A stretch of 64,000 nucleotides of DNA from a virus. Below, one piece after another: positions 13,325 to 37,981 of this stretch (position 1 is its first letter; each line of letters starts with the position of its first letter). A model generated the notes under the pieces. The model did not search any database. It saw nothing but the letters and a program-made list of their open reading frames with translations, and was not told the origin of the DNA. The stretch covers positions 34,025-98,024 of IMG/VR virus record IMGVR_UViG_3300037231_000129. One strand, written 5' to 3'. Made by a program: the position numbers and the translations under genes.

Positions 13325-13381
13325 GTGCCTTCCCTGTGATCAAGCAGGGCAGAGAGCTGGCTGCGCTCCAGCGAAAGGCAC
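13325..13381 (+). ncRNA. hammerhead-like ribozyme, type III, CAGAGA core (A1)
   Basis: stem III GTGCCT/AGGCAC, N17=T, stem I CCCTG/CAGGG, CAGAGA, stem II GCTGG/CCAGC, GAAA. Confidence 0.7.
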
Positions 13382-13387
13382 ACCCCA

Positions 13388-13756
13388 ATGTTCAACGCAA
13401 TCCTCCCCGTCGTTCGTCCCGTCGCCATTGCTGGCGCCCGGGTTGCCGGCGGCATCGCCATTGACGTGACCAAGACCGCTGCCGGCGTCGTTGTCGGTAT
13501 CGCGCTCGCGGTCGGTCTGGTTCGTGGTCTCAACAAAATCGAAACCACGTATCAGACGGTCAAGACCCGCCGCCAGGCGCGGCAGATCGCCAAATCGGTG
13601 GCTCAGGAAATCGCAAAACGCAATCTCCTGGCCTCCAACGGCTTTCTGCACCGCGACCAAGTGGCTCCTCAGCTGCACGCTGAGATCCAACGGATGATCG
13701 ACAATGGCCGTCTGGTCCTTGTCGCCGATCCGATCTCCGATGAGCTCGCCGCGTAA
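13388..13756 (+). CDS. hypothetical protein with hydrophobic N-terminus
   Basis: ATG 7 nt after motif A1. Confidence 0.65.
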   Translation: MFNAILPVVRPVAIAGARVAGGIAIDVTKTAAGVVVGIALAVGLVRGLNKIETTYQTVKTRRQARQIAKSVAQEIAKRNLLASNGFLHRDQVAPQLHAEIQRMIDNGRLVLVADPISDELAA

Positions 13757-13801
13757 GCGGCGTGCCTTCGGGCCTCCTAAGACCACGCCGCACCATGCGG
13801 C

Positions 13802-13860
13802 GTGCCTATCCAGCACCGCTGGACAGAGAGCCGAGACCTGTCCGTCTCGGCGAAAGGCAC
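13802..13860 (+). ncRNA. hammerhead-like ribozyme, type III, CAGAGA core (A2)
   Basis: GTGCCT-A-TCCAGC acc GCTGGA-CAGAGA-GCCGAGAC ctgtcc GTCTCGGC-GAA-AGGCAC. Confidence 0.75.
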
Positions 13861-13868
13861 ACCCCAAT

Positions 13869-14138
13869 ATGCCCACCCCCACAGAAGAAATCCTCGATCC
13901 CTCCGATGAAGAGCTGGTCGAGACCCTACGCTGCATCAACAGCCTGGCTCGGCTCCGTGAAATCATGGGCGGCCGCCTCGGCAGCTCTGATCCAACGGTC
14001 GCACTCTTGGTAGCGGTCATCTTCCGTCTCGAGCGCGACTACCAAACGGATTCGAGCGAGGCTCAGCGTGACGAAATCAGACGCCTGGTGGCTTCGGAAA
14101 AAAGACACGAAATCACCAGCCTGCTGAATTCGCTATAA
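13869..14138 (+). CDS. hypothetical protein
   Basis: ATG directly after motif A2. Confidence 0.6.
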   Translation: MPTPTEEILDPSDEELVETLRCINSLARLREIMGGRLGSSDPTVALLVAVIFRLERDYQTDSSEAQRDEIRRLVASEKRHEITSLLNSL

Positions 14139-14155
14139 GAACCTGGCGCAAGCCA

Positions 14156-14214
14156 GGGCCTTCCCCACCCCGTGGGGCAGAGAGCCGGGACCTGTCAGTT
14201 CTGGCGAAAGGCAC
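14156..14214 (+). ncRNA. hammerhead-like ribozyme, type III, CAGAGA core (A3)
   Basis: GCCT-T-CCCCAC/GTGGGG-CAGAGA-GCCGGGAC/GTTCTGGC-GAA-AGGC. Confidence 0.7.
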
Positions 14215-14220
14215 ACCCCA

Positions 14221-14541
14221 ATGACTTTCAAATCCTTCCTGTCGGCGACCGGCAGCGCGATCGGTGCCACGGCAAAGATCATGAACGACGTCGCCATGAC
14301 CAATGCACGTGGCAATCTCCTGTTGAGGCTTCCGACCGAGATCGACAAGATCGATACCGCATTCGGAACCTTGACAACCGATCTTCACATGCTCGCCGCC
14401 TACGGCAAACCGAGCTCTTCCGAGCAGCTTCGCGCTACGCGGGAGATCTCTGACAAACTGGCAGCTTTGGCCGCCAAGCTTGTCGCAACATCCTCCGAAC
14501 TCGCGGCTTTGGCCGGGGCCAAGAAGATGAGCCCCGCATGA
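14221..14541 (+). CDS. hypothetical protein
   Basis: ATG directly after motif A3. Confidence 0.65.
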   Translation: MTFKSFLSATGSAIGATAKIMNDVAMTNARGNLLLRLPTEIDKIDTAFGTLTTDLHMLAAYGKPSSSEQLRATREISDKLAALAAKLVATSSELAALAGAKKMSPA

Positions 14542-14545
14542 CGGG

Positions 14546-14603
14546 GCGCCTTTCCAGCACCGCTGGACAGAGAGCCGAGACCTGTCGTCTCGGCGAAAGG
14601 CAC
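14546..14603 (+). ncRNA. hammerhead-like ribozyme, type III, CAGAGA core (A4)
   Basis: GCCT-T-TCCAGC/GCTGGA-CAGAGA-GCCGAGAC/GTCTCGGC-GAA-AGGC. Confidence 0.7.
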
Positions 14604-14608
14604 ACCCA

Positions 14609-14731
14609 ATGCTCAAAACTCTTACCCGAAAACTCCTGGTCACAGGCGTTGCGCTCCTATCGGGCGCCACGGTGGCCGGGATCACTCTCGCGATCATCTC
14701 CGTCAAGGGCGCGAAAGGCGCACCCGAATAA
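14609..14731 (+). CDS. 40-aa predicted membrane microprotein (not in ORF track)
   Basis: MLKTLTRKLLVTGVALLSGATVAGITLAIISVKGAKGAPE; ATG directly after motif A4. Confidence 0.6.
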   Translation: MLKTLTRKLLVTGVALLSGATVAGITLAIISVKGAKGAPE

Positions 14732-14753
14732 CCAAACTGCCCCTCTCGTAGGG

Positions 14754-14809
14754 GCGCCTTCCCCGCACCGCGGGGCAGAGAGCATCCCTGCAATGGATGC
14801 GAAAGGCAC
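14754..14809 (+). ncRNA. hammerhead-like ribozyme, type III, CAGAGA core (A5)
   Basis: GCCT-T-CCCCGC/GCGGGG-CAGAGA-GCATCC/GGATGC-GAA-AGGC. Confidence 0.7.
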
Positions 14810-14815
14810 ACCCCA

Positions 14816-15202
14816 ATGAGTTTTGCTTCATCCTTCGGCCAGCCGCTCGCGCGTACTGGCCTTAATTTGCTTCGTGGGTCCACGATCCAGGCCATCGCCC
14901 GCACTGTGGGCGTTGTCGCTGCCGCGGGTCTCCTCGGAGCAGTCTACCACGTCGTCAACGACGAGGCCCGCAACGTCGTCCAGCTCGCCCGCTTGCGAGG
15001 CCAGTACCGCCGGCACCGCCACGATCGAATACTCGTAGCGACGCTCGGCACGGCTCTGGATCCGCAGCTGCAATACCAGCTGCTCTCGTCGCGGGATGCA
15101 TTCAAACGCATCACACGCCTGCTGGTCGATCCGGCCGTCGACGACGTCTCACGTAACCAGCTGCGCCAAGCCATTGTCATGGCCTGCTCGCAGCCGGTTT
15201 AG
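14816..15202 (+). CDS. hypothetical protein with one hydrophobic segment
   Basis: ATG directly after motif A5. Confidence 0.65.
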   Translation: MSFASSFGQPLARTGLNLLRGSTIQAIARTVGVVAAAGLLGAVYHVVNDEARNVVQLARLRGQYRRHRHDRILVATLGTALDPQLQYQLLSSRDAFKRITRLLVDPAVDDVSRNQLRQAIVMACSQPV

Positions 15203-15251
15203 AACGGGTATCATACCCTTTCTCGTTCCCGCTTTGGTCCACCAAAGCGGG

Positions 15252-15316
15252 CGGGATACCCTCTCGACTGAGAGGGGAGTCCAGCCGGCCGCTCTGAAAG
15301 CGCCGACGAAATCCCG
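15252..15316 (+). ncRNA. divergent hammerhead-like motif, type III, GAGTCCA core (A6)
   Basis: CGGGAT/ATCCCG stem III, CCCTCTC/GAGAGGG stem I, G3-C8 swapped core, CGAAA. Confidence 0.45.
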
Positions 15317-15329
15317 AAAGGCACACCCA

Positions 15330-15746
15330 ATGGCCAAATCCAAGCTGTCCGAACGCATGCTTCCTGTGCGAGGTTCCAAGCAATCACATGAATTGCTGAT
15401 AGAGCTGGTCGCCGAACTTAAAATGGCGGCCGAAGAAGGCACTGTCTTGCATTATGCGCCTGTTTTGGACGCTTACGTGTCAAAGCGTAAAGCCAAACAG
15501 ATAAACAAATGCTTTGAGGAAATGCTCGACGAAGTTTTGCTTCGAAAATTGACGACCCTCGAATTTTTGTTTGTTGCGGCTAGACTCTGGCATTTCGCCA
15601 AGCTAGAAACAAATATGACGATGCCGATCCAAGCACGTCCATACTTACCCAAGCTGTTCGATCTCGCCGAAGAATTCGGCGTCGCGGCAGCGGATATCGC
15701 ACAAATCGAAATCGACCATGTCGTGAACCCGCCGCCCGATGATTGA
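15330..15746 (+). CDS. hypothetical protein
   Basis: GAAAGGCACACCCA-ATG leader shared with cluster. Confidence 0.65.
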   Translation: MAKSKLSERMLPVRGSKQSHELLIELVAELKMAAEEGTVLHYAPVLDAYVSKRKAKQINKCFEEMLDEVLLRKLTTLEFLFVAARLWHFAKLETNMTMPIQARPYLPKLFDLAEEFGVAAADIAQIEIDHVVNPPPDD

Positions 15747-15752
15747 TCGGGC

Positions 15753-15811
15753 GGGCCTTCCCCGCACCGCGGGGCAGAGAGCCGAGACCTGCACGTCCCG
15801 GCGAAAGGCAC
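15753..15811 (+). ncRNA. hammerhead-like ribozyme, type III, CAGAGA core (A7)
   Basis: GCCT-T-CCCCGC/GCGGGG-CAGAGA-GCCGAGAC/GTCCCGGC-GAA-AGGC. Confidence 0.7.
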
Positions 15812-15816
15812 ACAAA

Positions 15817-15942
15817 ATGCCGTTCCTCCTCGCCCTGGCATTCATTTACCTGCCGGGTTGGGTCTGGCCCGCGCTCATCATTTTCGCGTTGATCGCGCTG
15901 CTAGTGCCCGGCCTTGCACCCCCCAGAACCGGCGGTAAGTAA
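15817..15942 (+). CDS. 41-aa membrane microprotein
   Basis: MPFLLALAFIYLPGWVWPALIIFALIALLVPG..; ATG directly after motif A7. Confidence 0.6.
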   Translation: MPFLLALAFIYLPGWVWPALIIFALIALLVPGLAPPRTGGK

Positions 15943-15978
15943 CCGCCGGCGCCGGCATTCAACCGGCTTGAGAAAGGG
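15922..15978 (+). ncRNA. hammerhead-like motif, type II, TTGAGAA core (B1)
   Basis: GAA-CCGGCGGT/ACCGCCGG-C-GCCGG/CCGGC-TTGAGAA; weak stem II. Confidence 0.5.
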
Positions 15979-15984
15979 ACAACC

Positions 15985-16260
15985 ATGACCATAGACCCCA
16001 ACCTCCTCCGACCTGGTCATCGTCTGCGGTTCACCCAATCGCTGGACGTCTTCACCCTGGACCACATCTTTCCCAAAGGTGCGGCGGGCACGATCGAAGA
16101 CGCCGAACTCGACGCCCTCCCGGGTCTGCCAATCCTGTATCTGCGCATGGATGACGTCTTTCCCTGCTTGAGCAGCTTCAAGAATGTTCTGCAGATCTTC
16201 CGGTCTAATGACCTGGGTGCGGAGGTGACCGACGCTGAATTCGAACCATGCGGCTTCTAA
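15985..16260 (+). CDS. hypothetical protein
   Basis: AAGGGA SD within motif B1. Confidence 0.65.
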   Translation: MTIDPNLLRPGHRLRFTQSLDVFTLDHIFPKGAAGTIEDAELDALPGLPILYLRMDDVFPCLSSFKNVLQIFRSNDLGAEVTDAEFEPCGF

Positions 16261-16297
16261 GCCGCCTGGTGCCAGGACACCCCTGGCTTGATAAGGA
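16240..16297 (+). ncRNA. hammerhead-like motif, type II, TTGATAA core (B2)
   Basis: TTC-GAA-CCA.GCGGCT/AGCCGC.TGG-T-GCCAGG/CCTGGC-TTGATAA-GGA. Confidence 0.6.
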
Positions 16298-16304
16298 CAT
16301 CCAC

Positions 16305-16910
16305 ATGTTACTCACCGACGACCAGGCCACACGCATCAACGGCCTTCTCCGTGCCACGCGGCCGTTCGCCAAATTGCCGGCGACGAACCAGCGACCCATG
16401 AACACCACGTGGCAAGCACTGAACGACACGTTGATGTCGATGCGGCTCCCCCTCTATCACAGATCCCTGCGCAAGCCGGTTCCCACGGAGAAGGTCTACG
16501 AGGCCGCCGTGCAGAATGGGCTTGCACTCCTCGGCGCGTTCGCGGCGACGCTTGGCACCAAACAGGCCATCGTCAGCAGCCGCGGCCGCTGGATCGACCG
16601 CATCAGCTTTCAGCCCCGTCCCGACGGGATGAACTGGAATGCGGCGCATGCCATCTCCCCGGAGTATCTGGTCCAAAAACGGGCCAGTGATCCGAACCAA
16701 GCTGTCTCGTTGGAGGATTTCCTGTTCATGGCCGCCAAGACTACCTACGTGGTAGCCCGGCGGTCCGCAGGCGCGATCCCCGACATTACCGCTACCTTCG
16801 CCTTCGACGTCGCCTCCGATGGTGCGCCGACGGTCGATGGGGTGGTGCGAGAACACGGCGCCCAGACGCATAACGCGAGCTTGCTGCCGCTTTCTCCTTT
16901 CCGCCTTTGA
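16305..16910 (+). CDS. hypothetical protein
   Basis: TAAGGA SD within motif B2; ATG 16305. Confidence 0.65.
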   Translation: MLLTDDQATRINGLLRATRPFAKLPATNQRPMNTTWQALNDTLMSMRLPLYHRSLRKPVPTEKVYEAAVQNGLALLGAFAATLGTKQAIVSSRGRWIDRISFQPRPDGMNWNAAHAISPEYLVQKRASDPNQAVSLEDFLFMAAKTTYVVARRSAGAIPDITATFAFDVASDGAPTVDGVVREHGAQTHNASLLPLSPFRL

Positions 16911-16965
16911 GAAAGGCGCGCCCTTCGGGGCCGCTTATCCATGCACATCATCATGGACTGAAGAC

Positions 16966-16994
16966 TTGATTTCCCGCCTGATCATTACCATATC
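16966..16994 (+). promoter_or_regulatory. putative sigma70-type promoter for the large ncRNA
   Basis: TTGATT-N17-CATATC in an AT-richer stretch just upstream of the structured region. Confidence 0.5.
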
Positions 16995-16999
16995 AGTTG

Positions 17000-17815
17000 G
17001 GTCATTAAAATCCGAATGATCTGGGCCCGGTTAGCGCCCTAGAGTGCGGCGCTTCTGCGCGGCTTGAGACGATCCTGGTGCGACGGTCGCACTTGCAATT
17101 TAGCAGGCGAGATGTTGAGGAAGACATCAATAGAGATTCCGCATCGTTGTGGTACTTGCAAGAACGCGGAAAAGGCCAATGCTCGACTGTAAGGCCAGTT
17201 GGGATTTGAGTACGGCAGCACTTGTAACCCTGCCCGAACACGGGGGCGCCACCCTCCAAGCCTAAACCTCTTCTATTTCGTCCAATGAGTATCGACCAAA
17301 ATGGCTCCGCTATAGTCCATCGGCATGCCGGTCATCCGGATTGATGCCAGTTAGAATGCGGTTCCGAGTGCCTGGGGTCTATGGCCCCCAGGCCGCCATG
17401 AGTAGTCGAGCCATCCGTAGTGGTAGAAGTTGGTTTGACTATGGAAATCAAACTGATGGAATTCACCGCGGAGATCCTATCCGGCAAGCCATTGGCGACC
17501 GCAAGGGCGCCGAGAATGCCGAGAGTTCATGCAGGCCCATGAGCAGGATAGGATCTGGTTTCCGTCGCATAACGCGGCGGGCTGAGAACTCGCCCGGGGC
17601 CTGGTCGCAATCCAGTAGCCAGAGCCCCCGGGCGGCAGAAACCAGATATCATTCCCATAGCATAGCGGTCCGAGTAGCTTAGTGCGCTCGACTGCTAAGG
17701 CCGGCAGCTTCTGCTGTGTTTCGAAAGGAACCCGCGTTGGGTGTGCGCGGCGGCCGGCATCTCACCCACCACCCAACTTCCCCCCTGACAGGACCCCCTG
17801 TCAGGGGGTTTTTTT
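17000..17815 (+). ncRNA. large (~800 nt) highly structured non-coding RNA, GOLLD/ROOL-like in size and style
   Basis: no credible ORF; many local hairpins, long-range 10-11 bp helices, GNRA loops and AGTA/GAA loop-E-like motifs; bounded by promoter and terminator. Confidence 0.75.
17781..17815 (+). terminator. intrinsic terminator
   Basis: CCCCCTGACAGG-accc-CCTGTCAGGGGG followed by T7. Confidence 0.9.
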
Positions 17816-18841: not shown

Positions 18842-18853
18842 GGGATCCCCCGC

Positions 18854-23214: not shown

Positions 23215-23217
23215 CGG

Positions 23218-25376: not shown

Positions 25377-25460
25377 TATCCGAAACCGCTCCGTGGCCGT
25401 GCCTCCCTCCCATGACCACGGGACGATCCGCCGGCGATCAAGCCGGCACTGATGAGGATA
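25377..25460 (+). ncRNA. hammerhead ribozyme-like, type II, CTGATGA core (B3)
   Basis: stem II TATCC/GGATA, GAAA, stem III CCGTGG/CCACGG, ATC site, stem I GCCGGC gatcaa GCCGGC, CTGATGA. Confidence 0.8.
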
Positions 25461-25464: not shown

Positions 25465-25698
25465 ATGACAACACGCATCCCGCAGGTCGTTCTGGACGCT
25501 TACGTCGCGCGTTGGTCGCATCTCGGGATATTGGCCGGGAAGGTCAATGATCCTGCTGTCACCGGCCTGCGCGCCGCACGCACATTCGCCCAGACGGTTT
25601 GCTGTCTCGAATCACCTCCCACGGTCACCATCAACCAGGTTCGCGGGCTTGCCCGCGTGGCCAATGGCGAACCCTGGGAAGCGATCCCCGACGTTTGA
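25465..25698 (+). CDS. hypothetical protein
   Basis: GAGGA SD within B3. Confidence 0.65.
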   Translation: MTTRIPQVVLDAYVARWSHLGILAGKVNDPAVTGLRAARTFAQTVCCLESPPTVTINQVRGLARVANGEPWEAIPDV

Positions 25699-25751
25699 AA
25701 CCCCGGCCCGCCGGGTTCCCGGCGCAATCTGGCGCCGGACTGATGAGGAAC
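25693..25751 (+). ncRNA. hammerhead ribozyme-like, type II (B4)
   Basis: GAAAC-CCCGGC/GCCGGG-TTC-CCGGCGC/GCGCCGG-A-CTGATGA-GGAAC. Confidence 0.7.
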
Positions 25752-25756
25752 ACCCC

Positions 25757-26002
25757 ATGCCACCAAGAAGACGCGTTGAATGGCTCGCGGCGAAAGCCGA
25801 GGGTCAATGCAACGACGTGCCCTACGACACCGAGCTGGTGAACAGCAACGGCGTCTCCATCCATTTTTGGCTGGGCGACCGTGAACCCACCGACGAACTG
25901 CTCGACGATCTCTCACGACGTGCCTGCAATCGGCGGGACATCGTGCGGATCCAATTCTCCGAGGGTCAGCCCACCGGCTTCTGGGCTCACTCCGATTTCT
26001 GA
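25757..26002 (+). CDS. hypothetical protein
   Basis: ATG after B4. Confidence 0.6.
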   Translation: MPPRRRVEWLAAKAEGQCNDVPYDTELVNSNGVSIHFWLGDREPTDELLDDLSRRACNRRDIVRIQFSEGQPTGFWAHSDF

Positions 26003-26062
26003 CGAAACCCCGGCTCAGCCGGGTTTCCGGCGCAATCCTGCGTCGGGCTGATGAAAGGAATC
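25994..26062 (+). ncRNA. hammerhead ribozyme-like, type II (B5)
   Basis: GATTTCT..CGAAAC-CCCGGC/GCCGGG-TT-TCCGGCGCA/TGCGTCGGG-CTGATGA-A-AGGAATC. Confidence 0.65.
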
Positions 26063-26590: not shown

Positions 26591-27166
26591 ATGGCAAATC
26601 TGACTGTTTACCGCCAGCAAGAGCCACCGTTTTCAATGACGATGGCCAACTGCCTGGCGGCCGCTGCCACCCAGGAAGACACCGATCTGATTGCCCTGTC
26701 CATGCGCACCAAGCGCCCTGCTCTGGTGGGCCTCGACAGCCGGTCGTCGATCATTCTACCCGGTGGAGACCTCGACGGACGTACCACGTTCGAAGATCTC
26801 TACGACACCTGCCTGACATTGGTCGACCTGCAGCACATGCGGGAGGCCAATGTTAGCAACCCTGAGGATGTGCCACTGCGAGCCTACAGGCTCGAAGTGT
26901 TGTTTGCGATCGATGGCACCTGCCAAATACCGATTGCTCTTCTCGCCAGTTCTATCGGCGATGCACGCCCCCGTTTGCGTACTCTCCTCGCCAAGGATGT
27001 TATGTTCCGCGAAGCCCTGTTTGACGCTGTCATTCAGGCTATCGACCGGAACTTTCGGGCTGAGGAGGATATCGTATTCCGGGTGCGGGAGAGCAGCATG
27101 GACGATCGCTCCATCATCCCGCCCCTGCTCCCAGGGGCCGGGCCAGAGTGGCGCATTCTTGAGTAA
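26591..27166 (+). CDS. hypothetical protein
   Basis: ATG 26591, follows previous gene. Confidence 0.6.
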   Translation: MANLTVYRQQEPPFSMTMANCLAAAATQEDTDLIALSMRTKRPALVGLDSRSSIILPGGDLDGRTTFEDLYDTCLTLVDLQHMREANVSNPEDVPLRAYRLEVLFAIDGTCQIPIALLASSIGDARPRLRTLLAKDVMFREALFDAVIQAIDRNFRAEEDIVFRVRESSMDDRSIIPPLLPGAGPEWRILE

Positions 27167-27168
27167 GT

Positions 27169-27231
27169 GAAAACCCCGTAGCGGATACCGCCGCGGGGTT
27201 TTGCTTGCATTCAGCAAGCATTGATAAGGAA
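27169..27231 (+). ncRNA. hammerhead-like, type II, TTGATAA core (B6)
   Basis: GAA-AACCCCG/CGGGGTT-T-TGCTTGC/GCAAGCA-TTGATAA-GGAA; weak stem II. Confidence 0.65.
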
Positions 27232-27482: not shown

Positions 27483-27533
27483 TCCGAACCTGGGCCACGC
27501 CCGGGCGCGGGCATTTCGCCCGCTTGAAAAGGA
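27483..27533 (+). ncRNA. hammerhead-like, type II, TTGAAAA core (B7)
   Basis: TCC-GAA-CCTGGGC/GCCCGGG-C-GCGGGC/GCCCGC-TTGAAAA-GGA. Confidence 0.65.
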
Positions 27534-27786: not shown

Positions 27787-28017
27787 GAGGCAGCCATGGC
27801 AGCGCGTCTCTGGAATCCTCACATTGGCACCCTGAAAGGCGGCCTACATCATAGTGTGGCCTACATCATTCAGATGCGGGTGCCACGCGATGAAGGCTAT
27901 GGCTCGCCCATGGTCGCCCTGTCCGATTACACCACTTCCCGCCGTACGGCGGATAGCTGGTTGGCGGATGCTCGGGTGAAGGCCGGCCGCTATCTCAGGG
28001 ATACCCGAAACAAATAA

Positions 28018-28066
28018 CCGAACCCGGGCTACACCCGGGTGCGAGCATCCCGCTCGCTTGAAAAGG
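28018..28066 (+). ncRNA. hammerhead-like, type II, TTGAAAA core (B8)
   Basis: CC-GAA-CCCGGG/CCCGGG-T-GCGAGC/GCTCGC-TTGAAAA-GG. Confidence 0.6.
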
Positions 28067-28075
28067 AAACACCCC

Positions 28076-28669: not shown

Positions 28670-28670
28670 T

Positions 28671-28715
28671 CCGAACCCCTTCGGGGGTGCGAGCAATCAA
28701 GCTCGCTTGAAAAGG
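28671..28715 (+). ncRNA. hammerhead-like, type II, TTGAAAA core (B9)
   Basis: CC-GAA-CCCC ttcg GGGG-T-GCGAGC aatcaa GCTCGC-TTGAAAA-GG. Confidence 0.6.
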
Positions 28716-28723
28716 CTACACCC

Positions 28724-28926: not shown

Positions 28927-28927
28927 G

Positions 28928-28979
28928 CCGAACCCGCGGCGCAAGCCCGGGCGCGAGCGATCAAGCTCGCTTGATAAGG
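28928..28979 (+). ncRNA. hammerhead-like, type II, TTGATAA core (B10)
   Basis: CC-GAA-CCCG.GGC gcaa GCC CGGG-C-GCGAGC gatcaa GCTCGC-TTGATAA-GG. Confidence 0.65.
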
Positions 28980-28988
28980 AAACACCCA

Positions 28989-29423
28989 ATGGGATACACA
29001 CATTTTTGGTTTGCACCCGAAGCAATCAGACCCCGCATCTGGTGGGTCGTGATGGCCGACGCGCTTAAGTTGGTGGAAGCATTCCCAGGCCCTGGTGGCC
29101 TCTGCATGGGCATCGAGAACCAAGCCCAGCGAGCCTTCGTCTCACGCGAGGAAATCCGCTTCAATGGCGGACCAGGCGCGCAGGCGGAGGATTTCAGGCT
29201 CACCCGGGAAGCCGGCAAACGGTATAGCTCCTGCAAGACCCAGCATCAGCCCTATGAACGGCTGGTCTGTGCTATACTTGCCTCCACCGCTGATCGTACT
29301 CGGCTCATTCGCGTCACCAGCGATGGCAATCATCACGATTGGTTACCATATATAGAGTGGGCGTCCACGGTGTTGCGGCGTCCACTCCCGATGCCGATCC
29401 ATACCAACGAAATCACAGGGTAA
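28989..29423 (+). CDS. phage hypothetical protein
   Basis: MGYTHFW..IRFNG..EDF..CKT...PY...VCAIL..V.SDG motif resembles a recurrent phage family. Confidence 0.7.
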   Translation: MGYTHFWFAPEAIRPRIWWVVMADALKLVEAFPGPGGLCMGIENQAQRAFVSREEIRFNGGPGAQAEDFRLTREAGKRYSSCKTQHQPYERLVCAILASTADRTRLIRVTSDGNHHDWLPYIEWASTVLRRPLPMPIHTNEITG

Positions 29424-29480
29424 CGAACCCCACCGCCCGGTGGGGACGCCGGCGATCAAGCCGGCACTGAGGAGTAACCC
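29418..29480 (+). ncRNA. hammerhead-like, type II, CTGAGGA core (B11)
   Basis: GGGTAAC-GAA-CCCCACCG/CGGTGGGG-A-cGCCGGC gatcaa GCCGGCa-CTGAGGA-GTAACCC. Confidence 0.7.
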
Positions 29481-29481
29481 T

Positions 29482-30303
29482 ATGGCAGATCTCGACATTA
29501 TCGAACTCATGCGGAGCCCGCTGACCCAAAGCGGGAAATCCTCGAACTTCCTGCGCCTGGTGCTGTCCGAAGCCGCAAGCTACGGCATGCCGGCGCAGGT
29601 GGTTGCTACACTCGACGACATAGCGGCGATGCTCGGCTACTACCGGCCCCTGCCAGAGGGGCAGGCCGTGCATCTGGCGGGTCCTCTTGTGCAATGGCGT
29701 ACCGACCGGCAACAGCCGGTGCTGGAACGCATCACGGAAATCGAAGGCCTGGCGCTCAAACAGCGTGCCCTCGTTGCTTTCGGCGGCGCACCACCCGACC
29801 ACCGGGTAGGCACCGCGGAGATCATCGTCGCGCTGTCCAACTGCCATAAGAGCTTCATGCCAAAGCCCTATTATGAGATTTGGGCATGGGCTTGTACCAC
29901 CGTCATGGCGCATCTGACCGGCGAAAACCCCGAGAAGATCCGCAAGACGAATGAGTGGCCGCAAGTTTTCGACAACGATGTGCTCCGCCCCGGCGGCCGT
30001 CTGCACCCCACTTACACGGAGATCGCCACCTCTATTCGTCGCGTCAGCATTGATTCGATGCGAGGCGATGAAGAAAACCCACGGGTCCGGCTGCGGCCCC
30101 TTGCTCTGGTGTTTCTCCACGCGCATCAACGGTATCTCAACGAAGCCAAGCACGAAGCTGGTTCCGTCGAGTTGCTACAGGTTGAGGCGGTGGAAAACGC
30201 GATCAAGTCGATCCACAGCATGTTTCCCGATATCACTCAGGACGAGATCAACGCCGTTGATTTCACTGAGGAAGTCTCAAAGCTCGCAGAGCTGAGCATT
30301 TAG
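29482..30303 (+). CDS. hypothetical protein (probable remote paralog of 33192-33779)
   Basis: GAGGAG SD within B11. Confidence 0.7.
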   Translation: MADLDIIELMRSPLTQSGKSSNFLRLVLSEAASYGMPAQVVATLDDIAAMLGYYRPLPEGQAVHLAGPLVQWRTDRQQPVLERITEIEGLALKQRALVAFGGAPPDHRVGTAEIIVALSNCHKSFMPKPYYEIWAWACTTVMAHLTGENPEKIRKTNEWPQVFDNDVLRPGGRLHPTYTEIATSIRRVSIDSMRGDEENPRVRLRPLALVFLHAHQRYLNEAKHEAGSVELLQVEAVENAIKSIHSMFPDITQDEINAVDFTEEVSKLAELSI

Positions 30304-30365
30304 CCGAACAACCGCCCGGGCCCAGCGCCTGGGTGGTTTAGCGCCAACACGGCGCCAGACGAGGC
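30303..30365 (+). ncRNA. hammerhead-like, type II, CAGACGA core (B12)
   Basis: GCC-GAA-c-AACCGCCCGGG/CCTGGGTGGTT-ta-GCGCC/GGCGC-CAGACGA-GGC. Confidence 0.55.
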
Positions 30366-30394: not shown

Positions 30395-30703
30395 ATGGCT
30401 GATCACAAACGAAAACCCGCCAAAACCACGAAATTTCCGAAAAAGTTTCGCATGAAACTGGAAAAAATCGTGGAGGCCAAAGCCGGGCGGGCATCGGAAG
30501 CGACGAGAGAAGAGGCATTCGACAAGATTGCCGACGTTCTCGGCCGCGAACTGCTGACGCCCGGCTCGGTCTACGCGACGCACACGGTGATCGACGAAGC
30601 GAATTTTCGTCTAACCTCGCGTCACTGGATCCAGCCGATCGACAAGCTTCGCTACCTGTCGGTTCCTGCTCCCTGGCTTCCCGAAACCCCGGCCTCCTCG
30701 TGA
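30395..30703 (+). CDS. hypothetical basic protein
   Basis: 102-aa ORF in cluster. Confidence 0.55.
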   Translation: MADHKRKPAKTTKFPKKFRMKLEKIVEAKAGRASEATREEAFDKIADVLGRELLTPGSVYATHTVIDEANFRLTSRHWIQPIDKLRYLSVPAPWLPETPASS

Positions 30704-30744
30704 GGCCGGGATATGCCGGCGATCAAGCCGACACTGATGAGGAA
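30678..30744 (+). ncRNA. hammerhead ribozyme-like, type II (B13)
   Basis: CC-GAAAC-CCCGGCCTC/GAGGCCGGG-ATA-TGCCGGC gatcaa GCCGACA-CTGATGA-GG. Confidence 0.75.
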
Positions 30745-30750
30745 CACCCC

Positions 30751-31074
30751 ATGAGATACTGCAAAATCATCAACGGATTGCTCTACGACACCGAGACTGC
30801 CGACCTGATCTGCGACATAACTCCGAAAGAGGCCGGCCAATCTCGCAGCGATTTCAACTACGATGACACTGGGCTCTACCGCACCCCCGGCAAGAGGTTT
30901 TTCATCGCCGGGGAAGGAGGTCCCACTTCCCGCTGGAGCACGCCTGTGAACAACGGTCTTTTCGAAGGCAATGGCCTGAGAGAAATTACCGAAGAAGAGG
31001 CAAAAGCGTTCGTCGAGGAATTCGCCTCGGTCGAGATGTATATCGCAGTTTTCGGCGAGCCCGATTCTGCTTAA
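30751..31074 (+). CDS. phage hypothetical protein
   Basis: KIING.LYDTETA..LYRT..GKRFFIAGEGGP.SRW motif. Confidence 0.7.
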   Translation: MRYCKIINGLLYDTETADLICDITPKEAGQSRSDFNYDDTGLYRTPGKRFFIAGEGGPTSRWSTPVNNGLFEGNGLREITEEEAKAFVEEFASVEMYIAVFGEPDSA

Positions 31075-31136
31075 GCGAAACCCCGGCCTCCTCGTGAGGC
31101 CGGGATATGCCGGTATTTCGCCGGCGCTGATGAGGC
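31075..31136 (+). ncRNA. hammerhead ribozyme-like, type II (B14), at end of cluster
   Basis: 38 nt identical to B13, then stem I TGCCGGT/GCCGGCG, CTGATGAG; no downstream + ORF. Confidence 0.7.
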
Positions 31137-31137
31137 C

Positions 31138-31923
31138 CTAAGCCGGCAACGATGCCACGTCCGCCGAGAGCGACGCCCAATCCAGGTCGGATGGAGCGAG
31201 CCCCGTGGTGGTGATCCAGAACCGCGACAGCGCGACGTCGGTGGCGAGCCAATACCTGGAGAGAAAATCAGGGTGCATCCACACCTGCTCCGCCCACGTC
31301 TCGCCATTGAGATAGCCGTCGCGCTGGCCGCCCACGGCAATGCTGTGCTGACCCCAGCCACCAGGCTCCCAGCCTGTCCCGGTGCCAGGCGCATCCCCCC
31401 AAGCACTCACCGGGGCCTGCAGCAGCGCCTCGGGCAGCGCCAGGGTGATGCGGACCGGGCCGGCCAGATCGATCGCCACCGGGGTGTCCGCCAGGTCAGC
31501 GTGCGTCCAGCCGATGACGTCGAGGTCGTTGGCCGGATTGCCGAGCGGCAACCCTTGCGTCGCCCACCAGGCCATGAACTCATTGGTGTTGGTGCCCGAG
31601 CCCATACCGGGTGGCGTGTAGCCCGTGCGCTGGGTGTACAGGCCGAGACAGCCGGCCGTCGTCGGCAAGTAGCTGTTCGGTCCCCAGGCATGATGTGCCC
31701 GGGCGCGGGCGATCTGGAAGGCGCTCACCTCGACGCAATTACCGGCGTCATTGTTGCCCAGCATGGGATCGGGGCCGCTAGCGAAATCGATCCCGTCGAA
31801 CCAGTCGGTTTCCGGTTTGGTCTGGGGCAGCTGCAGCAGTGAAGCGAAAGCGCGAATCACGGCGGGCCGGGGCGTATGGATCGCCCCGGTGCAACGTTCG
31901 ATCATCTTACTGTACCGAAGCAA
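31138..31923 (-). CDS. papain-like cysteine peptidase family protein
   Basis: MLGNNDAGNCV (Cys), GQHSIAVGG (His), ETW. Confidence 0.55.
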   Translation of the reverse strand: MLRYSKMIERCTGAIHTPRPAVIRAFASLLQLPQTKPETDWFDGIDFASGPDPMLGNNDAGNCVEVSAFQIARARAHHAWGPNSYLPTTAGCLGLYTQRTGYTPPGMGSGTNTNEFMAWWATQGLPLGNPANDLDVIGWTHADLADTPVAIDLAGPVRITLALPEALLQAPVSAWGDAPGTGTGWEPGGWGQHSIAVGGQRDGYLNGETWAEQVWMHPDFLSRYWLATDVALSRFWITTTGLAPSDLDWASLSADVASLPA

Positions 31924-32443: not shown

Positions 32444-32479
32444 CCGAGTGGCCTTTCTACGATGTGGCGATGGGTCGCC

Positions 32480-32791
32480 TTATGAGCCGGTGGCGGGTGC
32501 CGGCGACGGTGCGGGTTGCGAGAGCGAAGCGGCAAACGCGGTTGCGGCGGCCAGGACCGTCTCGCCGGCGTTCTCGATCTGCACCACGGGCACGCCGTGT
32601 GCCTCGGCCGACGCAATGCCGGCGGCCAGGGCCTCCGAGATCAGCGGCGAGCTTGCCGTCAGGGTCGTCAGGCTCTCCTCGGCCACCGCGACCTTGCCGA
32701 CCAGCCAAACCGCCGCGTGTTCGACCGCGGTCAGCCCTTCGTGGCCAATTTGTTCAAGCTTCTGGACGATTGTCATCGAGGGATCGGACAT
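32480..32791 (-). CDS. hypothetical Ala-rich protein
   Basis: GGAGG SD. Confidence 0.65.
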   Translation of the reverse strand: MSDPSMTIVQKLEQIGHEGLTAVEHAAVWLVGKVAVAEESLTTLTASSPLISEALAAGIASAEAHGVPVVQIENAGETVLAAATAFAASLSQPAPSPAPATGS

Positions 32792-32897
32792 GGGAATCCT
32801 CCAAATATATTAGGTTTATCCAGCGGATTGTTCATGCGCGCATTTTTGGTTTGCGGCGAGTCACAAAATCACAGGGTAGTGTTTCAATTTGATCTGT

Positions 32898-32953
32898 GAA
32901 AGCCCCGCATTTTACTAGGAGCTCTGCCGGCACCCCGCCGGCGCTGATGAGGA
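32898..32953 (+). ncRNA. hammerhead ribozyme-like, type II (B15)
   Basis: GAA-AGC..GCT-C-TGCCGGC/GCCGGCG-CTGATGA-GGA; weak stem II. Confidence 0.65.
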
Positions 32954-32957
32954 CACC

Positions 32958-33125
32958 ATGAAATACGCTGTGATTCCCAGCTCCTGGCTCACCACCGGCT
33001 GGGGCTGGAGCGCCCGCCGTCTCATTGTCCTGCAACGGATGGCGATGCGATACGAACTGCCGTTGGACGATCCAACGCGGCTGGAAGGCCTGTATCGCCA
33101 CGTCTGCTTTGAGATATGGCCTTAG
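32958..33125 (+). CDS. 55-aa hypothetical protein (not in ORF track)
   Basis: MKYAVIPSSWLTTGWGWSARRLIVLQ..; fills the gap between B15 and B16. Confidence 0.6.
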   Translation: MKYAVIPSSWLTTGWGWSARRLIVLQRMAMRYELPLDDPTRLEGLYRHVCFEIWP

Positions 33126-33187
33126 TGCGAACCCCTGCCTCCCGATCGGCAGGGGTCCGGGACAATCAAGTCCCGACTGATGAGCAC
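33125..33187 (+). ncRNA. hammerhead ribozyme-like, type II (B16)
   Basis: GTGC-GAA-CCCCTGCC/GGCAGGGG-TC-CGGGAC aatcaa GTCCCG-A-CTGATGA-GCAC. Confidence 0.75.
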
Positions 33188-33191
33188 CCCC

Positions 33192-35285: not shown

Positions 35286-35309
35286 CCCTCGATCACAAGG
35301 AAACATGCC

Positions 35310-35948
35310 ATGGCTTCCAGCGCCGCGAATATCACTGTCGTCGGTTACGTCGGACAGGATCCGGAAATCCGTAAACTCGATGGTGGTCGCGAGGTCTGCA
35401 CGATCTCGATTGCCGTCTCCGGTAAGACCGGGGGCGATGAGTGGACCAATTGGTACCGCTGCTCAATCTGGCGCGAAAACGACATAGATTTTATCGATAA
35501 ATACATCAAAAAAGGCGCCTACGTCGCGGTGTTCGGCGAGTTGCACAGCCGCGAATACCGCGACCGCGAGGGCTACGACAGGACGTCGATGGACGTCAAC
35601 GCGCAACGATTTATGTCGCTCGACAAGGGCGATGGCGGCGGCCGGAGCGGCGGCGATCGCGATCGCGGGCGCGGCGGTGACGATCGGACCCGGTCTGGCG
35701 GTGGGCGCGGCGACACCCGTGGTGCTGATCGGGGCCGGGGCGGTGATGACCGAGGCGGCGGGCGTGGTGATGACCGTGGCCGCGGCGACACCCGTGGTGC
35801 TGATCGGGGCCGGGGCGGTGATGACCGTGGCCGCGGCGGCGACGCGCGTGGCGCCGATCGGGGTCGCGATACCGGTGGCCGTGGCGGCGATACCGGGCGC
35901 CCGAATGCGCAGCGGGATGCTGACCTGGACGATGAGATTCCATTTTGA
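35310..35948 (+). CDS. ssb: single-stranded DNA-binding protein
   Basis: VGYVGQDPEIR..T.WYRC..W..KKG..V.V.GEL..REY.D; C-terminal DDEIPF. Confidence 0.95.
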   Translation: MASSAANITVVGYVGQDPEIRKLDGGREVCTISIAVSGKTGGDEWTNWYRCSIWRENDIDFIDKYIKKGAYVAVFGELHSREYRDREGYDRTSMDVNAQRFMSLDKGDGGGRSGGDRDRGRGGDDRTRSGGGRGDTRGADRGRGGDDRGGGRGDDRGRGDTRGADRGRGGDDRGRGGDARGADRGRDTGGRGGDTGRPNAQRDADLDDEIPF

Positions 35949-36490
35949 CCGTTCTAATAGTTACGGTCTAGGAACTATCTGAGGGAGGTATGTCATGTCA
36001 GTATCTGCAATACAAGTGAATTCGGCTCGGCGCGCGTCGAAGCTGGTGAAAACCAATGACTGACGAAGATCTGCGCAACCTTCGGGCAATGCTGGAAACC
36101 CGACGTTCCAGCAGTATCGAAATCATCCAAAAGTTTCCGTCGCCAGCACGGTTCGGCAGCAGTTCCGAGGAACTTCTCGTCGTCGTCCGTGAAGCCATGG
36201 CTTGGCGGGCGGCGGTGCGGTCGCAATCGCACGAACCGTTCACCACAATCCATGTTCTGCCGGGGGCCGCGCTGCGCCTGTTGCTCGAACCGACAGAGCT
36301 GGTCAGTGAAACCACCGGTCCAGTCGAGGTTCGGCTCTGGAAAGGCCTGACGAACCGCGGCACCGACGTGGCGGCCTTCATCATGGCCATCGGCTCGCAG
36401 TCGCCGGAATTCGATGCCGAGGTCGGTGCCCTGCTGCGTTCGACCGAGCCACCACCGATCGTGGAGTCCCCGCTCTGAAGGAAAGCCCTG

Positions 36491-36892
36491 TTGGCTGATC
36501 GTCGTCCAACCTACCGCGATGTCGAGCCCGTCCGCCACGCGGTGACGTACGAGGAAATGCAGGAAGCCAAGGTCTTTGTCGATCGCACGGCCAACGAGTT
36601 CGGGCGGCTGAAGGCGCGGTCAAAATACGAGAAGCTGGTGCTGGATGCCCTCCTGCACCGGCTCATCCGCGATTCAGACGCCAAGACGTACAAAATGCGC
36701 GAAGACGACGCCGAGGCCTCGCCGATCTATTTGCGCCAGGCCGAGCAATGGCTCGCGGTCGAGACACAGTGGAACCAGCTCGAGGCGAAGACCAAGGTCG
36801 AGTACACGAAAATCGAGATTTGGCGGACGATCAGCGCCAACGAGCGGATCCGCGAGCAATCGCCTGATTCAACCCGCGAAAGGAGATCATGA
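36491..36892 (+). CDS. hypothetical coiled-coil protein of the recombination module
   Basis: C-terminal KIEIWRT.SANER motif. Confidence 0.55.
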   Translation: MADRRPTYRDVEPVRHAVTYEEMQEAKVFVDRTANEFGRLKARSKYEKLVLDALLHRLIRDSDAKTYKMREDDAEASPIYLRQAEQWLAVETQWNQLEAKTKVEYTKIEIWRTISANERIREQSPDSTRERRS

Positions 36893-37615
36893 ATGCCAGG
36901 ATCAAAATCCCCGCGATCACCGGAATTCGTCAAGGAATTCACGCAATTATGGGAGGCAAAGACTGGCCCGAAGTGGACCTATACGACCTCCGATATGGGC
37001 CACCGACTGGGCATCACCAAAAATACCGTCTGCGGCCTGCGCAAGCGTTTGGACCTTCCGGAACGCGGGACCCCTCTGAGAGGAAACCTGACGTTCGTGA
37101 ACGGGAAACTGGTGCGCGAAAAAATGCCGCCCAGGCCACGAAAACCACCGCTAACCGTTGAAATCCCTGGCGAACCGATCCAAATCCCAAGAGCGCGGTG
37201 GCTTGAATGGTTCAACCGCCTCGAGTCTCCCCAGAAACAGCGAATAGCCGCCGCGATCCATCCCAGAGGCTGCGCCATGCTGGCGTCCGGTGGTGGCATG
37301 TGGGAATGCACCTGTGGCCTGTCGCTGCCCGGTACCGCGCTGGCGCGCACCGCATCGAAGCGCGAATGCGTGGCCGATGTGCCGGCGGAAGCGATCGCCG
37401 GGCTGGCATCGTCACCACCGTCTAAACGCAGGTCTCACACCGTCGCCGCAACTAGGCCGAGTCCCTTCCGGCGAACGGAGCCATGCTGTTGGCCGAATGG
37501 CCCCTGCGACGCCGAGGCGGTGCCAGGCAAGCCCTACTGCGTTGAACACTGGGAGCTGACCCACCAGAAATCGAGGCAGCCTGAGCGGCAGGAAGCTGCT
37601 CACGAGTCGGCGTAG
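36893..37615 (+). CDS. GcrA-family cell-cycle regulator homolog
   Basis: LW...SDMGHRLGITKNTVCGLRKRLDL HTH and CCWPNG..C.....GKPYC.EH C-terminus. Confidence 0.75.
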   Translation: MPGSKSPRSPEFVKEFTQLWEAKTGPKWTYTTSDMGHRLGITKNTVCGLRKRLDLPERGTPLRGNLTFVNGKLVREKMPPRPRKPPLTVEIPGEPIQIPRARWLEWFNRLESPQKQRIAAAIHPRGCAMLASGGGMWECTCGLSLPGTALARTASKRECVADVPAEAIAGLASSPPSKRRSHTVAATRPSPFRRTEPCCWPNGPCDAEAVPGKPYCVEHWELTHQKSRQPERQEAAHESA

Positions 37616-37931
37616 CCATGCCCGGGCGCTGCGCTAGCTGCCGCTCATGGGACGGTCATACGCAGGCTCGGTTGCGGCAGATGGGCAGTTGCGATCTCGA
37701 TGGCCAGCTCGTGCATGCTGGCTACGGCTGTCCATCGCACAGGCCCAGCGTGCGATCCCTCCAAGTTATTGTCGGCATGACCCTCACCGACCTGGTGCGT
37801 CTACGCCAAGACCACGGCGACGCGGCCGACCAGCTGCGCGAAGCGTGGCTCATCCTCTGGAAAAAACCTGACGACGATCCGACACGCTGGATGTTCGAAC
37901 GGCTGCTACGCGACTACCGCAACATACCGCC

Positions 37932-37981
37932 CTCCTGAAACAGCAATGTCCGCCGGTGATCAAGCCGGCACTGACGAGGAG
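37932..37981 (+). ncRNA. hammerhead ribozyme, type II, canonical core (B17)
   Basis: CTCC(T)-GAAA-CA gcaa TG-TC (GUC site, predicted cut after 37950)-cGCCGGT gatcaa GCCGGCa-CTGACGA-GGAG. Confidence 0.8.

Follow-up and report, generated by a model that had tools for sequence, protein, structure and literature searches.

Perreault et al. 2011 (PMC3088659) described hammerhead ribozymes clustered in prophages and proposed that they process long phage RNAs to gene-length mRNAs. Cleavage of tandem prophage hammerheads has been shown both in vitro and in vivo (PMC3088659), and published work has documented cleavage by type II hammerheads inside D. vulgaris cells. Natural variants of the core include U3-A8, A6C, U15.1-A16.1 and U10.1-U11.1, some of which were shown to be active (Perreault 2011, Fig. 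5, PMC3088659); the U3-A8 covariation and stems II of 2 bp are both known from active natural hammerheads (PMC3088659), and alteration of the 15.1-16.1 pair has been reported to reduce activity at least 10-fold. In RNA viruses, ribozyme cleavage enables translation (PMC13725137). Since 2011 it has been an open question which function the hundreds of hammerheads in bacteria and phages serve.

The 98-kb genome of the uncultured phage considered here carries about 25 small hammerhead-shaped RNAs, one ahead of most of its small early genes. The window, by which we mean the whole stretch of 64,000 nucleotides that was analysed, holds 25 three-helix elements on its + strand, spread over one gene array at 13.3-17.0 kb and another at 25.4-38.0 kb, and divided into 18 of type II and seven of type III topology. 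All 24 elements that an earlier note had listed were recovered in position and strand, and one more, at 16908-16967, was added. The elements, with the evidence for each in brackets, are as follows.

13322..13381, + strand: class A element 1, core CAGAGA, predicted N17 = U13331, ATG 13388 (R1, 59.2 bits; fold)
13799..13860, + strand: class A element 2, N17 = A13808, ATG 13869, loop II CUGUCC complementary to GGACAG (R1; fold)
14153..14214, + strand: class A element 3, N17 = U14162, ATG 14221 (R1; fold)
14543..14603, + strand: class A element 4, N17 = U14552, ATG 14609 (R1; fold)
14751..14809, + strand: class A element 5, N17 = U14760, ATG 14816 (R1, 68.5 bits; fold)
15252..15324, + strand: divergent element of type III topology, 7-nt core GAGUCCA (G3..C8 swap, A4, U6), stem III CGGGAU/AUCCCG, N17 = A15258, ATG 15330; not found by the R1 search (fold, z = -4.2)
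15750..15811, + strand: class A element 6, N17 = U15759, ATG 15817 (R1; fold)
15923..15977, + strand: type II, core UUGAGAA, C15.1-G16.1, predicted cut after 15950, ATG 15985 (structural parse)
16240..16297, + strand: type II, core UUGAUAA, 15.1/16.1 C-G, predicted cut after 16270, ATG 16305 (structural parse)
16908..16967, + strand: possible type II, core CUGAAGA, 15.1/16.1 A-U, no stem II, competing fold; ends array 1, before a gene-free stretch of ~800 nt (parse; fold)
25379..25458, + strand: canonical type II, core CUGAUGA, GAAA, 15.1/16.1 A-U, 5-bp stem II (UAUCC/GGAUA), predicted cut after 25428, ATG 25465 (RF02276, 17.5 bits)
25693..25759, + strand: type II with canonical core, predicted cut after 25718, ATG 25757 (RF02276, 25.8 bits, the best Rfam match of the window)
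25994..26061, + strand: type II with canonical core, stem II of 7 bp set back from the core and including the Shine-Dalgarno sequence AAGGAA, predicted cut after 26026, ATG 26065 (structural parse)
27166..27230, + strand: type II, core UUGAUAA, 15.1/16.1 A-U, predicted cut after 27201, ATG 27240 (structural parse)
27483..27533, + strand: type II, core UUGAAAA, 15.1/16.1 C-G, stem II UCC/GGA, predicted cut after 27506, ATG 27541 (structural parse; fold)
28017..28067, + strand: type II, core UUGAAAA, 15.1/16.1 C-G, predicted cut after 28040, ATG 28076 (structural parse)
28670..28716, + strand: type II, core UUGAAAA, 15.1/16.1 C-G, UUCG tetraloop on stem III, predicted cut after 28688, ATG 28724 (structural parse)
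28927..28980, + strand: type II, core UUGAUAA, 15.1/16.1 C-G, predicted cut after 28952, ATG 28989 (structural parse)
29418..29481, + strand: type II, core CUGAGGA, 15.1/16.1 C-G, stem II GGGUAAC/GUAACCC, predicted cut after 29446, ATG 29482 (structural parse)
30303..30365, + strand: type II, core CAGACGA (A4), C.U at 15.1/16.1, stem II GCC/GGC, predicted cut after 30340, no start codon directly downstream (structural parse; fold)
30679..30746, + strand: type II with canonical core, predicted cut after 30713, ATG 30751 (structural parse)
31073..31142, + strand: type II with canonical core, predicted cut after 31107; closes a + strand block, with no start codon behind it (RF02276, 21.4 bits)
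32894..32956, + strand: type II with canonical core, predicted cut after 32924, ATG 32958; opens the next + strand block (RF02276, 21.6 bits)
33125..33189, + strand: type II, core CUGAUGA, 15.1/16.1 C-G, stem II GUGC/GCAC, predicted cut after 33156, ATG 33192 (RF02276, 22.2 bits)
37933..37987, + strand: canonical type II, core CUGACGA, predicted cut after 37950, GTG 37990 (RF02276, 21.5 bits)

The proximity to start codons claimed earlier is borne out by the gene map, where 22 of the 25 elements have their 3' end 4-9 nt before an ATG or GTG (counting those that open an ORF of >=30 codons), and the 5' end of each lies at the upstream stop codon or within ~25 nt of it. Helix sequences differ freely among the elements, and the conserved letters are those of the unpaired junctions; several copies do share identical stem I arms and loops (GCCGGC-GAUCAA-GCCGGC). 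Predicted cut sites were also compared with contig ends, and no coincidence was seen. What emerges are two conserved three-way-junction RNA families, situated at gene junctions on the coding strand, whose helices covary and whose junction nucleotides are conserved.

In the type II elements, the structural parse and folds of 18 copies place hairpin-closed stems I and III and an open stem II around one junction. Pairing is kept while stem sequences change, as had been proposed: 199 of 216 stem and core-pair cells are paired, a value matched by none of 2000 shuffles, and stems I and III are 92% paired (0/2000 shuffles). The core pair 3-8 is C-G in 11 copies and U-A in seven, with no mismatch. G5, A6 and A9 are invariant, GAA is found in every copy as the criterion that defined the set, and N17 is C in seven, U in six and A in five, never G. 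The canonical A-U pair at 15.1-16.1 is present in nine copies, C-G in eight and a C.U mismatch in one, and the part of stem II adjacent to the core has 0-2 bp in most of them. With a strict descriptor we found eight type II copies on the + strand, versus 0.45 per dinucleotide-shuffled genome with both strands counted. In sister phages, the A4 cores CAGAAGA and UAGACAA also occur in copies of type II.

Comparison with the Rfam hammerhead models, which the earlier note had suggested as a check, brought none of the 25 window elements to a gathering score; six type II copies match RF02276 at 17-26 bits, all below threshold, the best at 25.8 bits against a gathering threshold of 37. A pseudoknot between loop I and the 3' tail, which is typical but not obligatory in the published type II consensus, is not present in these copies, the complementarity of the two segments averaging 2.8 nt versus 2.6 nt for shuffled loops (p = 0.17). 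The canonical copies conform to every sequence rule for self-cleavage, and we consider their self-cleavage likely. About half of the elements look like ordinary self-cutting hammerheads, and the cuts predicted earlier after 37950, 32924 and 13808 agree with our structural parse.

The description of the junctions as CUGANGA-like fits 17 of the 18 type II copies, which read YUGANRA with matching positions 3 and 8, but it does not extend to the copy at 30303 (CAGACGA), to the element at 15252 (GAGUCCA) or to the remaining six of the seven type III copies, where a six-letter CAGAGA takes the place of CUGANGA. The copy at 16911 (16908-16967) lacks stem II and has an alternative fold.

The six CAGAGA copies belong to what we call class A, in which stem III is open, stems I and II are closed by hairpins, and the core consists of C3, A4, G5, A6, G8 and A9, without U4 and N7. 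Class A is a real family and is common in soil phages. At least 111 distinct copies were collected from three sister phages of ~100 kb, two Alphaproteobacteria MAG contigs and many other metagenome contigs. Stem positions are paired in 92-94% of cases. Together with its G001 relatives, class A has 94.4% of its cells paired, and both sides have changed in 10 of 15 pairs (equalled by 0 of 500 shuffles); across the seed and metagenome sets such double changes affect 10-12 of the 15 pairs, and the covariation extends from the seed set to 57 independent copies from metagenomes. N17 is U in 91 of the 111 copies, C in 12, A in eight and G in none, the A15.1-U16.1 pair is invariant (A1 and A4), and G8, A9, G12, A13 and A14 are conserved in the manner of hammerheads. 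GAA is retained in 97 of 111 copies and replaced in some by GCA.

The CAGAGA core itself is found in 94 of the 111 copies. The same scaffold carries two copies of UAGAAA (U3..A8), further cores such as CAGAUGA and CAGUCGA, and, in only one instance, the canonical CUGACGA, in a sister phage (L205:13072-13134), where it scores 23.7 bits with Rfam Hammerhead_3 against a gathering score of 48.5. It is the UAGAAA and CUGACGA members that tie the family to hammerheads. A search of 2.5 kb gave no Rfam hammerhead match to class A at E <= 10, the canonical-core sister copy being the only one with a hit, and the family is absent from Rfam 15. A second peculiarity is a pseudoknot of 3 bp, in which the first three core nucleotides (C3-A4-G5) pair with the first three nucleotides of loop II. 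The pairing reads CAG:CUG in 94 of 103 copies, and four compensatory changes back it (CGG:CCG twice, UAG:CUA and CUG:CAG). This pairing is incompatible with the canonical active site, because there C3 pairs with G8 and G5 contacts N17. We read class A as a hammerhead-derived variant whose pseudoknot may represent either an alternative state, masked or post-cleavage, or part of a modified active fold. Self-cleavage of the variant copies, class A included, is at present putative.

The open helix of either form consists of the Shine-Dalgarno purines paired to an upstream strand of CCU type, a mimic of the anti-Shine-Dalgarno sequence. The Shine-Dalgarno strand is (GA)GGA or AAGGA directly after the core in type II, and AAAGG, within the 3' strand of stem III, in class A. 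In type II, the long early transcript would cut itself 3' of position 17 in each element, which would leave the upstream message with a stem III hairpin end and a 2',3'-cyclic phosphate, while the downstream message would begin with the stem I hairpin and a 5'-OH. Afterwards the open helix, which is short, would dissociate, and by falling apart it would free the ribosome site. The same logic could apply to class A, where a separate GC-rich hairpin abutting stem III (a hairpin abuts 30 of 53 copies upstream, versus 14% of control positions) would cap the upstream product. For the set as a whole, the probable role is to divide long messages into pieces of one gene each and to release every ribosome-binding site.

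Taken together, we hold with moderate confidence that the elements belong to or derive from the hammerhead ribozyme family, serving as a per-gene cassette for RNA processing and translation in the early operons of a lineage of ~100-kb siphovirus-like phages, with two related records located in Alphaproteobacteria MAGs. The earlier proposal of RNA-processing hammerheads is supported in part: type II topology, canonical or known-active U3-A8 cores, an N17 that is never G, one element per gene junction and no excess of promoters or terminators inside the arrays all agree with ribozyme processing of polycistronic RNA. Half of the type II copies lack A15.1-U16.1, however, and the six CAGAGA copies are not canonical hammerheads, given their A4, their missing N7 and a pseudoknot that would occupy C3-G5, so that any catalytic activity of theirs is putative. 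More tentatively, and with some doubt, we entertain class A as a new hammerhead-derived self-cleaving architecture, having a 6-nt core without U4 and N7 and using its pseudoknot as a switch or as a rebuilt part of the active site; cleavage may then license the translation of every early gene, since it takes away the anti-Shine-Dalgarno strand.

The most serious competitor, which we regard as unlikely, is that some or all copies, chiefly class A and the C-G variants at 15.1/16.1, are structured leaders of hammerhead descent that lack catalysis. Such leaders could act as a translational gate holding the Shine-Dalgarno sequence, as a binding site for a phage or host protein, or as a 5' stabiliser whose three-way junction and pseudoknot would stack as a rod and keep RNases from entering at the 5' end. 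The shortened class A core, unmatched by Rfam hammerhead models, would fit this, as would the removal of C3-G5 from a hammerhead-type active site by the pseudoknot, the C that stands in place of A13 in several copies and the Shine-Dalgarno sequence in the closing helix. However, a three-way junction as stable as that of class A (about -35 kcal/mol) hiding the ribosome site would block most early genes unless it were opened, and no opening factor has been identified. The exclusion of G from N17 and the hammerhead-like retention of G8, A9, G12, A13 and A14 are likewise hard to reconcile with an inert leader, as is the presence of canonical-core and U3-A8 members on the same scaffold, and the abutting upstream hairpin suits a cap for a cleaved 3' end.

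Less probable still is that a protein ribonuclease of host or phage (RNase III, E, P or a comparable enzyme) recognises the elements and cuts the polycistronic RNA at each junction, with no catalysis by the RNA itself. Hairpins cleaved by RNase III serve this purpose in phages such as T7, the elements stand at every gene junction, and the variant cores are perhaps too degenerate to self-cleave. Against this, the single-stranded nucleotides that are conserved match the hammerhead core exactly, its covarying 3-8 pair included, helix sequences are free to vary, no long, perfect RNase III-type duplex occurs, and the canonical copies comply with all the sequence rules of self-cleavage. Signals acting in DNA or transcription (repeated promoters, terminators or REP-like palindromes) without RNA-structural function are very improbable, for although the repeated intergenic sequences have GC-rich inverted repeats and several identical stem I arms and loops, all lie on the coding (+) strand, their three helices show compensatory changes, their hairpins are not followed by U-tracts, promoters and terminators are not in excess, and the conserved letters sit in unpaired junctions.

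The phage lineage offers an unusually clean test system, with dozens of copies per genome that form a graded series from canonical to strongly altered cores, at defined positions between stop and start codon and with the ribosome-binding site built into the very helix that a cut would dissolve. Cleavage of the copies would give the phage a protein-free form of operon processing, linked to translation as well as to the protection of mRNA ends; and cleavage-licensed translation of early genes, if true, would be the first defined physiological job for bacterial and phage hammerheads. Should class A cleave, the accepted rules for the hammerhead core need revision; should it not, soil phages possess a widespread and uncatalogued leader RNA with a pseudoknot. 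Either way, the family merits a model of its own.

Among known systems, class A resembles H-type pseudoknots and leaders that combine a three-way junction with a pseudoknot, for example exoribonuclease-resistant RNAs, in that an upstream strand pairs with a hairpin loop beside the junction, and H-type geometry accommodates its loop lengths. This is an apparent resemblance of topology only, without any relationship of sequence or family (none from Rfam). With HHphage of the haloviruses HF1/HF2 (PMC3088659) and the RNA-virus ribozymes (PMC13725137) the elements share a hammerhead a few nucleotides before a start codon, a position at the head of early transcripts and a link between cleavage and expression of the downstream ORF; those, however, are single elements, whereas here an array carries a bacterial Shine-Dalgarno sequence in the ribozyme helix. 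Like the natural core variants, our elements include rare departures from consensus that keep the fold (U3-A8 in seven type II copies, UAGAAA in class A), and among the published core variants found there is no CAGAGA (A4, N7 lost), CGGAGA, CAGUCGA, C15.1-G16.1 or pseudoknot from core to loop II. Closest are the prophage clusters of Perreault 2011 (RF02276 and RF00008, clan CL00010), which have in common with this locus the three-helix topology, CUGANGA, GAA, H17, the U3-A8 covariation, very short stems II, the coding-strand position between small phage genes and the same proposed processing role. They differ in that a published cluster comprises two or three elements, versus ~25 per 98-kb genome here, where both topologies coexist in one operon system, half of type II has C-G at 15.1/16.1, the pseudoknot from loop I to tail is missing, the open helix is made from the Shine-Dalgarno sequence and Rfam thresholds are unmet. 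To take the arrangement as unprecedented, as the earlier note implied, is too strong, given that clustered phage hammerheads were already described in 2011; the number per genome, the core form of class A and the built-in ribosome site are new.

We interpret the elements that punctuate the two + strand gene arrays of this phage as hammerhead-type RNAs, and the best reading, which we consider reasonably probable on the sequence, is that a long early transcript would cleave itself at each of them. All 24 elements listed in the earlier note were recovered in the window, and one more was added at 16908-16967. They belong to two classes:

13322 to 15811, + strand: class A, type III topology, six copies and a divergent one at 15252
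15923 to 37987, + strand: class B, type II topology, 18 copies

Each class B element runs from the 5' strand of stem II through GAA, the stem III hairpin, N17 (the nucleotide 5' of the predicted cut), the stem I hairpin, an optional nucleotide and a 7-nt core to the 3' strand of stem II, an order that, as read from the sequence, is the type II hammerhead topology. In our structural parse, used because a MAFFT alignment of the type II copies is out of register, pairing holds in 199 of the 216 cells for stems and core pairs, a count reached by 0 of 2000 shuffles, with the reservations that the parse selects the best-pairing split and is thus biased toward pairing, and that shuffle tests, here and below, overstate independence, copies within a genome being paralogues. 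The 3-8 pair is C-G in 11 copies, U-A in 7 and mismatched in none; G5, A6 and A9 are invariant; and N17 is C (7), U (6) or A (5), never G. At 15.1-16.1 there is A-U in 9 copies, C-G in 8 and C.U in one, and the C-G form occurs in six of the seven copies with U3-A8. A strict descriptor found 8 copies on the + strand versus 0.45 per dinucleotide-shuffled genome (both strands counted), and the Rfam model Hammerhead_II matches six class B copies at 17-26 bits, the gathering score being 37. A permissive Rfam search returned sub-threshold type II matches only, and none for the twister, twister-sister, pistol, hatchet or hairpin ribozymes. The canonical copies, roughly nine in number, are likely to cleave themselves; for those that combine U3-A8 with C-G at 15.1/16.1 self-cleavage is plausible, if probably slower, and for class A it is no more than possible. 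Published 15.1/16.1 mutants are reduced in activity at least 10-fold.

Separately, a (G/A)AUCAA motif recurs in loop I of type II copies (for example at 25437, 28959, 29455, 30722, 33165 and 37959) and of the class A copy at 13340, and the complementarity of loop I to the adjacent core (UGAU, UUGAU) amounts to 3.17 nt versus 2.61 nt for shuffled loops (p = 0.001). Given the linker of 0-1 nt, loop I can pair with the core only if stem I is open. In type II copies, a test for a loop I-3' tail pseudoknot gave no support.

For class A, the type III topology proposed in the earlier note stands, whereas the CUGANGA core does not: these elements consist of GCCU, N17, a stem I hairpin, the six-letter core CAGAGA, a stem II hairpin that opens with G-C and C-G, GAA and AGGC. 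When the class A elements are taken together with 12 copies from one sister phage, pairing holds in 94.4% of cells and double-sided changes are seen at 10 of the 15 pairs, which none of 500 shuffles equalled. Over 111 distinct copies, N17 is U in 91, C in 12, A in 8 and G in none, the core is CAGAGA in 94, and GAA separates stems II and III in 97; the U16.1-A15.1 pair is invariant. Rare core variants tie this family to hammerheads. One copy on the class A scaffold has the canonical core CUGACGA and matches Rfam Hammerhead_3 at 23.7 bits; two have UAGAAA, equivalent to U3..A8 provided that the core is numbered C3 A4 G5 A6 G8 A9; and CAGAUGA, CAGUCGA and, in window copy 15252, GAGUCCA (G3..C8) also occur. 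In several copies of the sister phages G002 and G003 (L198-L209) and G001 (L079-L080), GCA or GCU replaces GAA, and position 17 is mostly A in a UAUC or UACC context; the two may represent a coupled change.

Relatives of class A were traced with DNA patterns derived from it, the early ones matching viral contigs mostly by chance, such that a 22-base pattern was needed. The sister phages are of about 100 kb (G001, 91.5 kb; G002, 104.6 kb; G003, 102.6 kb with terminal repeats). R1, the class A covariance model, finds 6 copies in the phage itself, about 14 in G001, 18 in G002 and 16 in G003, on a single strand per genome; lone R1 matches of 20-28 bits in genome and metagenome scans were counted as chance. 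A few type II copies in the sister phages have the A4 cores CAGAAGA and UAGACAA. Contigs of two uncultured Alphaproteobacteria MAGs carry five and two copies of the class A pattern, and these two bins are the basis for assigning an alphaproteobacterial host. The pattern search also yielded about sixty further distinct class A copies on metagenome contigs; 57 distinct metagenome copies, none of them used in R1 training, are 92.6% paired with changes on both sides at 12 of 15 pairs, in an alignment that was fitted to R1 and so leans toward the model. An identical 46-nt stretch on Bacteroidales and Alistipes contigs (L210, L215, L216, L229 and many human-gut metagenome loci, e.g. L277, L278 and L281) fits the class A pattern and was treated as unrelated to the phage family, its R1 score being just 26-27 bits.

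Class A has one trait that is foreign to hammerheads, namely pairing between the core and loop II. Loop II begins with CUG in 94 of the 103 copies with a CAG core, and in the pooled class A set core and loop change together as CGG:CCG (twice), UAG:CUA and CUG:CAG, two CGG:CUG copies being wobble-compatible. Strand order and loop lengths fit an H-type pseudoknot. By geometric reasoning, uncomputed, this pseudoknot and the canonical active site are mutually exclusive, and where stem II is long the pseudoknot also strains an intact three-way junction, so that it may represent an alternative state. A fourth pseudoknot pair (2.1 with the nucleotide after CUG) proved inconsistent by eye, and a permuted CUGA turn supplied from loop II was rejected, the fourth loop letter being A, C or U.

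Every element starts at or just past the stop codon with which the preceding ORF ends, and in 22 of the 25 the 3' end lies 4-9 nt ahead of an ATG or GTG; the exceptions are 30303 and the elements at 16908 and 31073, with which + strand blocks end. The earlier note had counted roughly one element per gene, which is only partly true: array 1 has an element at each of its nine gene junctions between 13.3 and 16.3 kb, whereas several junctions in array 2 are empty, for example 27786/27796 and the entire stretch of 33.8-37.6 kb. Sequence scans revealed no excess of sigma-70-type promoters or intrinsic terminators within the arrays, which, together with the placement of the elements, would be consistent with long polycistronic transcripts. 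Downstream of the last element of array 1, about 800 nt carry no gene (16966-17815), and at the end of this stretch lies a strong terminator (17781-17808; 12-bp stem and T7).

In type II elements the core is followed by GGA(A), about 7 nt of spacer, in many copies ACACCCC, and AUG; with G8-A9 or A8-A9, GGA(A) forms GAGGA or AAGGA, which makes up stem II together with a (U)CC strand lying upstream. The corresponding purines of class A belong to stem III, whose 3' strand reads AAAGGC, about 7 nt ahead of AUG, and is paired with GCCUU(U). Since the Shine-Dalgarno strand is paired in the open helix, a cut after N17 would, in either topology, part it from the strand that masks it. The long early RNA would be converted into single-gene mRNAs, the downstream products bearing a 5'-OH, a 5' hairpin and an unmasked ribosome site, and the upstream products ending in a hairpin and a cyclic phosphate. 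For type II this hairpin would be that of stem III; class A, with stem III open, would need a separate hairpin abutting on the upstream side if the design is based on cleavage, and of 53 copies examined, 30 have an adjoining hairpin of at least 5 bp, versus 14% of control positions. Metagenome contig ends did not coincide with predicted cut sites. That the elements are instead non-catalytic leaders of hammerhead descent is possible, albeit rather doubtful; that they are targets of a protein RNase is improbable, and that they act as DNA-level signals is highly improbable.

The source record comprises 98,024 bp (CheckV completeness 96%, GC 0.62), and since the window encodes tape measure and tail proteins, a primase/helicase, a replication initiator and an Erf-like annealing protein, the phage is siphovirus-like. 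The elements are confined to the two arrays, which consist of small genes and are separated by a minus-strand replication block; we infer the label "early" from gene content alone. Nine of ten element-led genes had no match in PHROGs, and the tenth belongs to a family of unknown function. RtcB was not found in the four phages. The only Rfam match at gathering thresholds is a tRNA gene at 11449-11521 on the minus strand (64.1 bits), probably tRNA-Phe from the GAA anticodon loop in the alignment. Three minus-strand ORFs at 31138-32791 split the + strand array between elements 31073 and 32894; their third-codon-position GC is 0.81-0.84 versus 0.70-0.78 in most surrounding candidate ORFs, and they may be an inserted module.

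Among the full texts searched and in Rfam 15 we found no description of the CAGAGA core, of the core-loop II pseudoknot, of recurrent natural C-G at 15.1/16.1, of a Shine-Dalgarno sequence forming part of the open helix, or of about 25 hammerhead-type copies in one phage. Type II hammerheads cleave in D. vulgaris cells (PMC8782182), and in some RNA viruses translation is enabled by hammerhead cleavage (PMC13725137). In prophages, multiple hammerheads surround single genes, cleavage has been demonstrated for three tandem sets, and U3-A8 covariation has been reported in natural copies, as have stems II of 2 bp (Perreault et al. 2011, PMC3088659). The role proposed for those prophage hammerheads, the cutting of transcripts into gene-length mRNAs, is the same as that which we propose here, and U3-A8 covariation is common to both.
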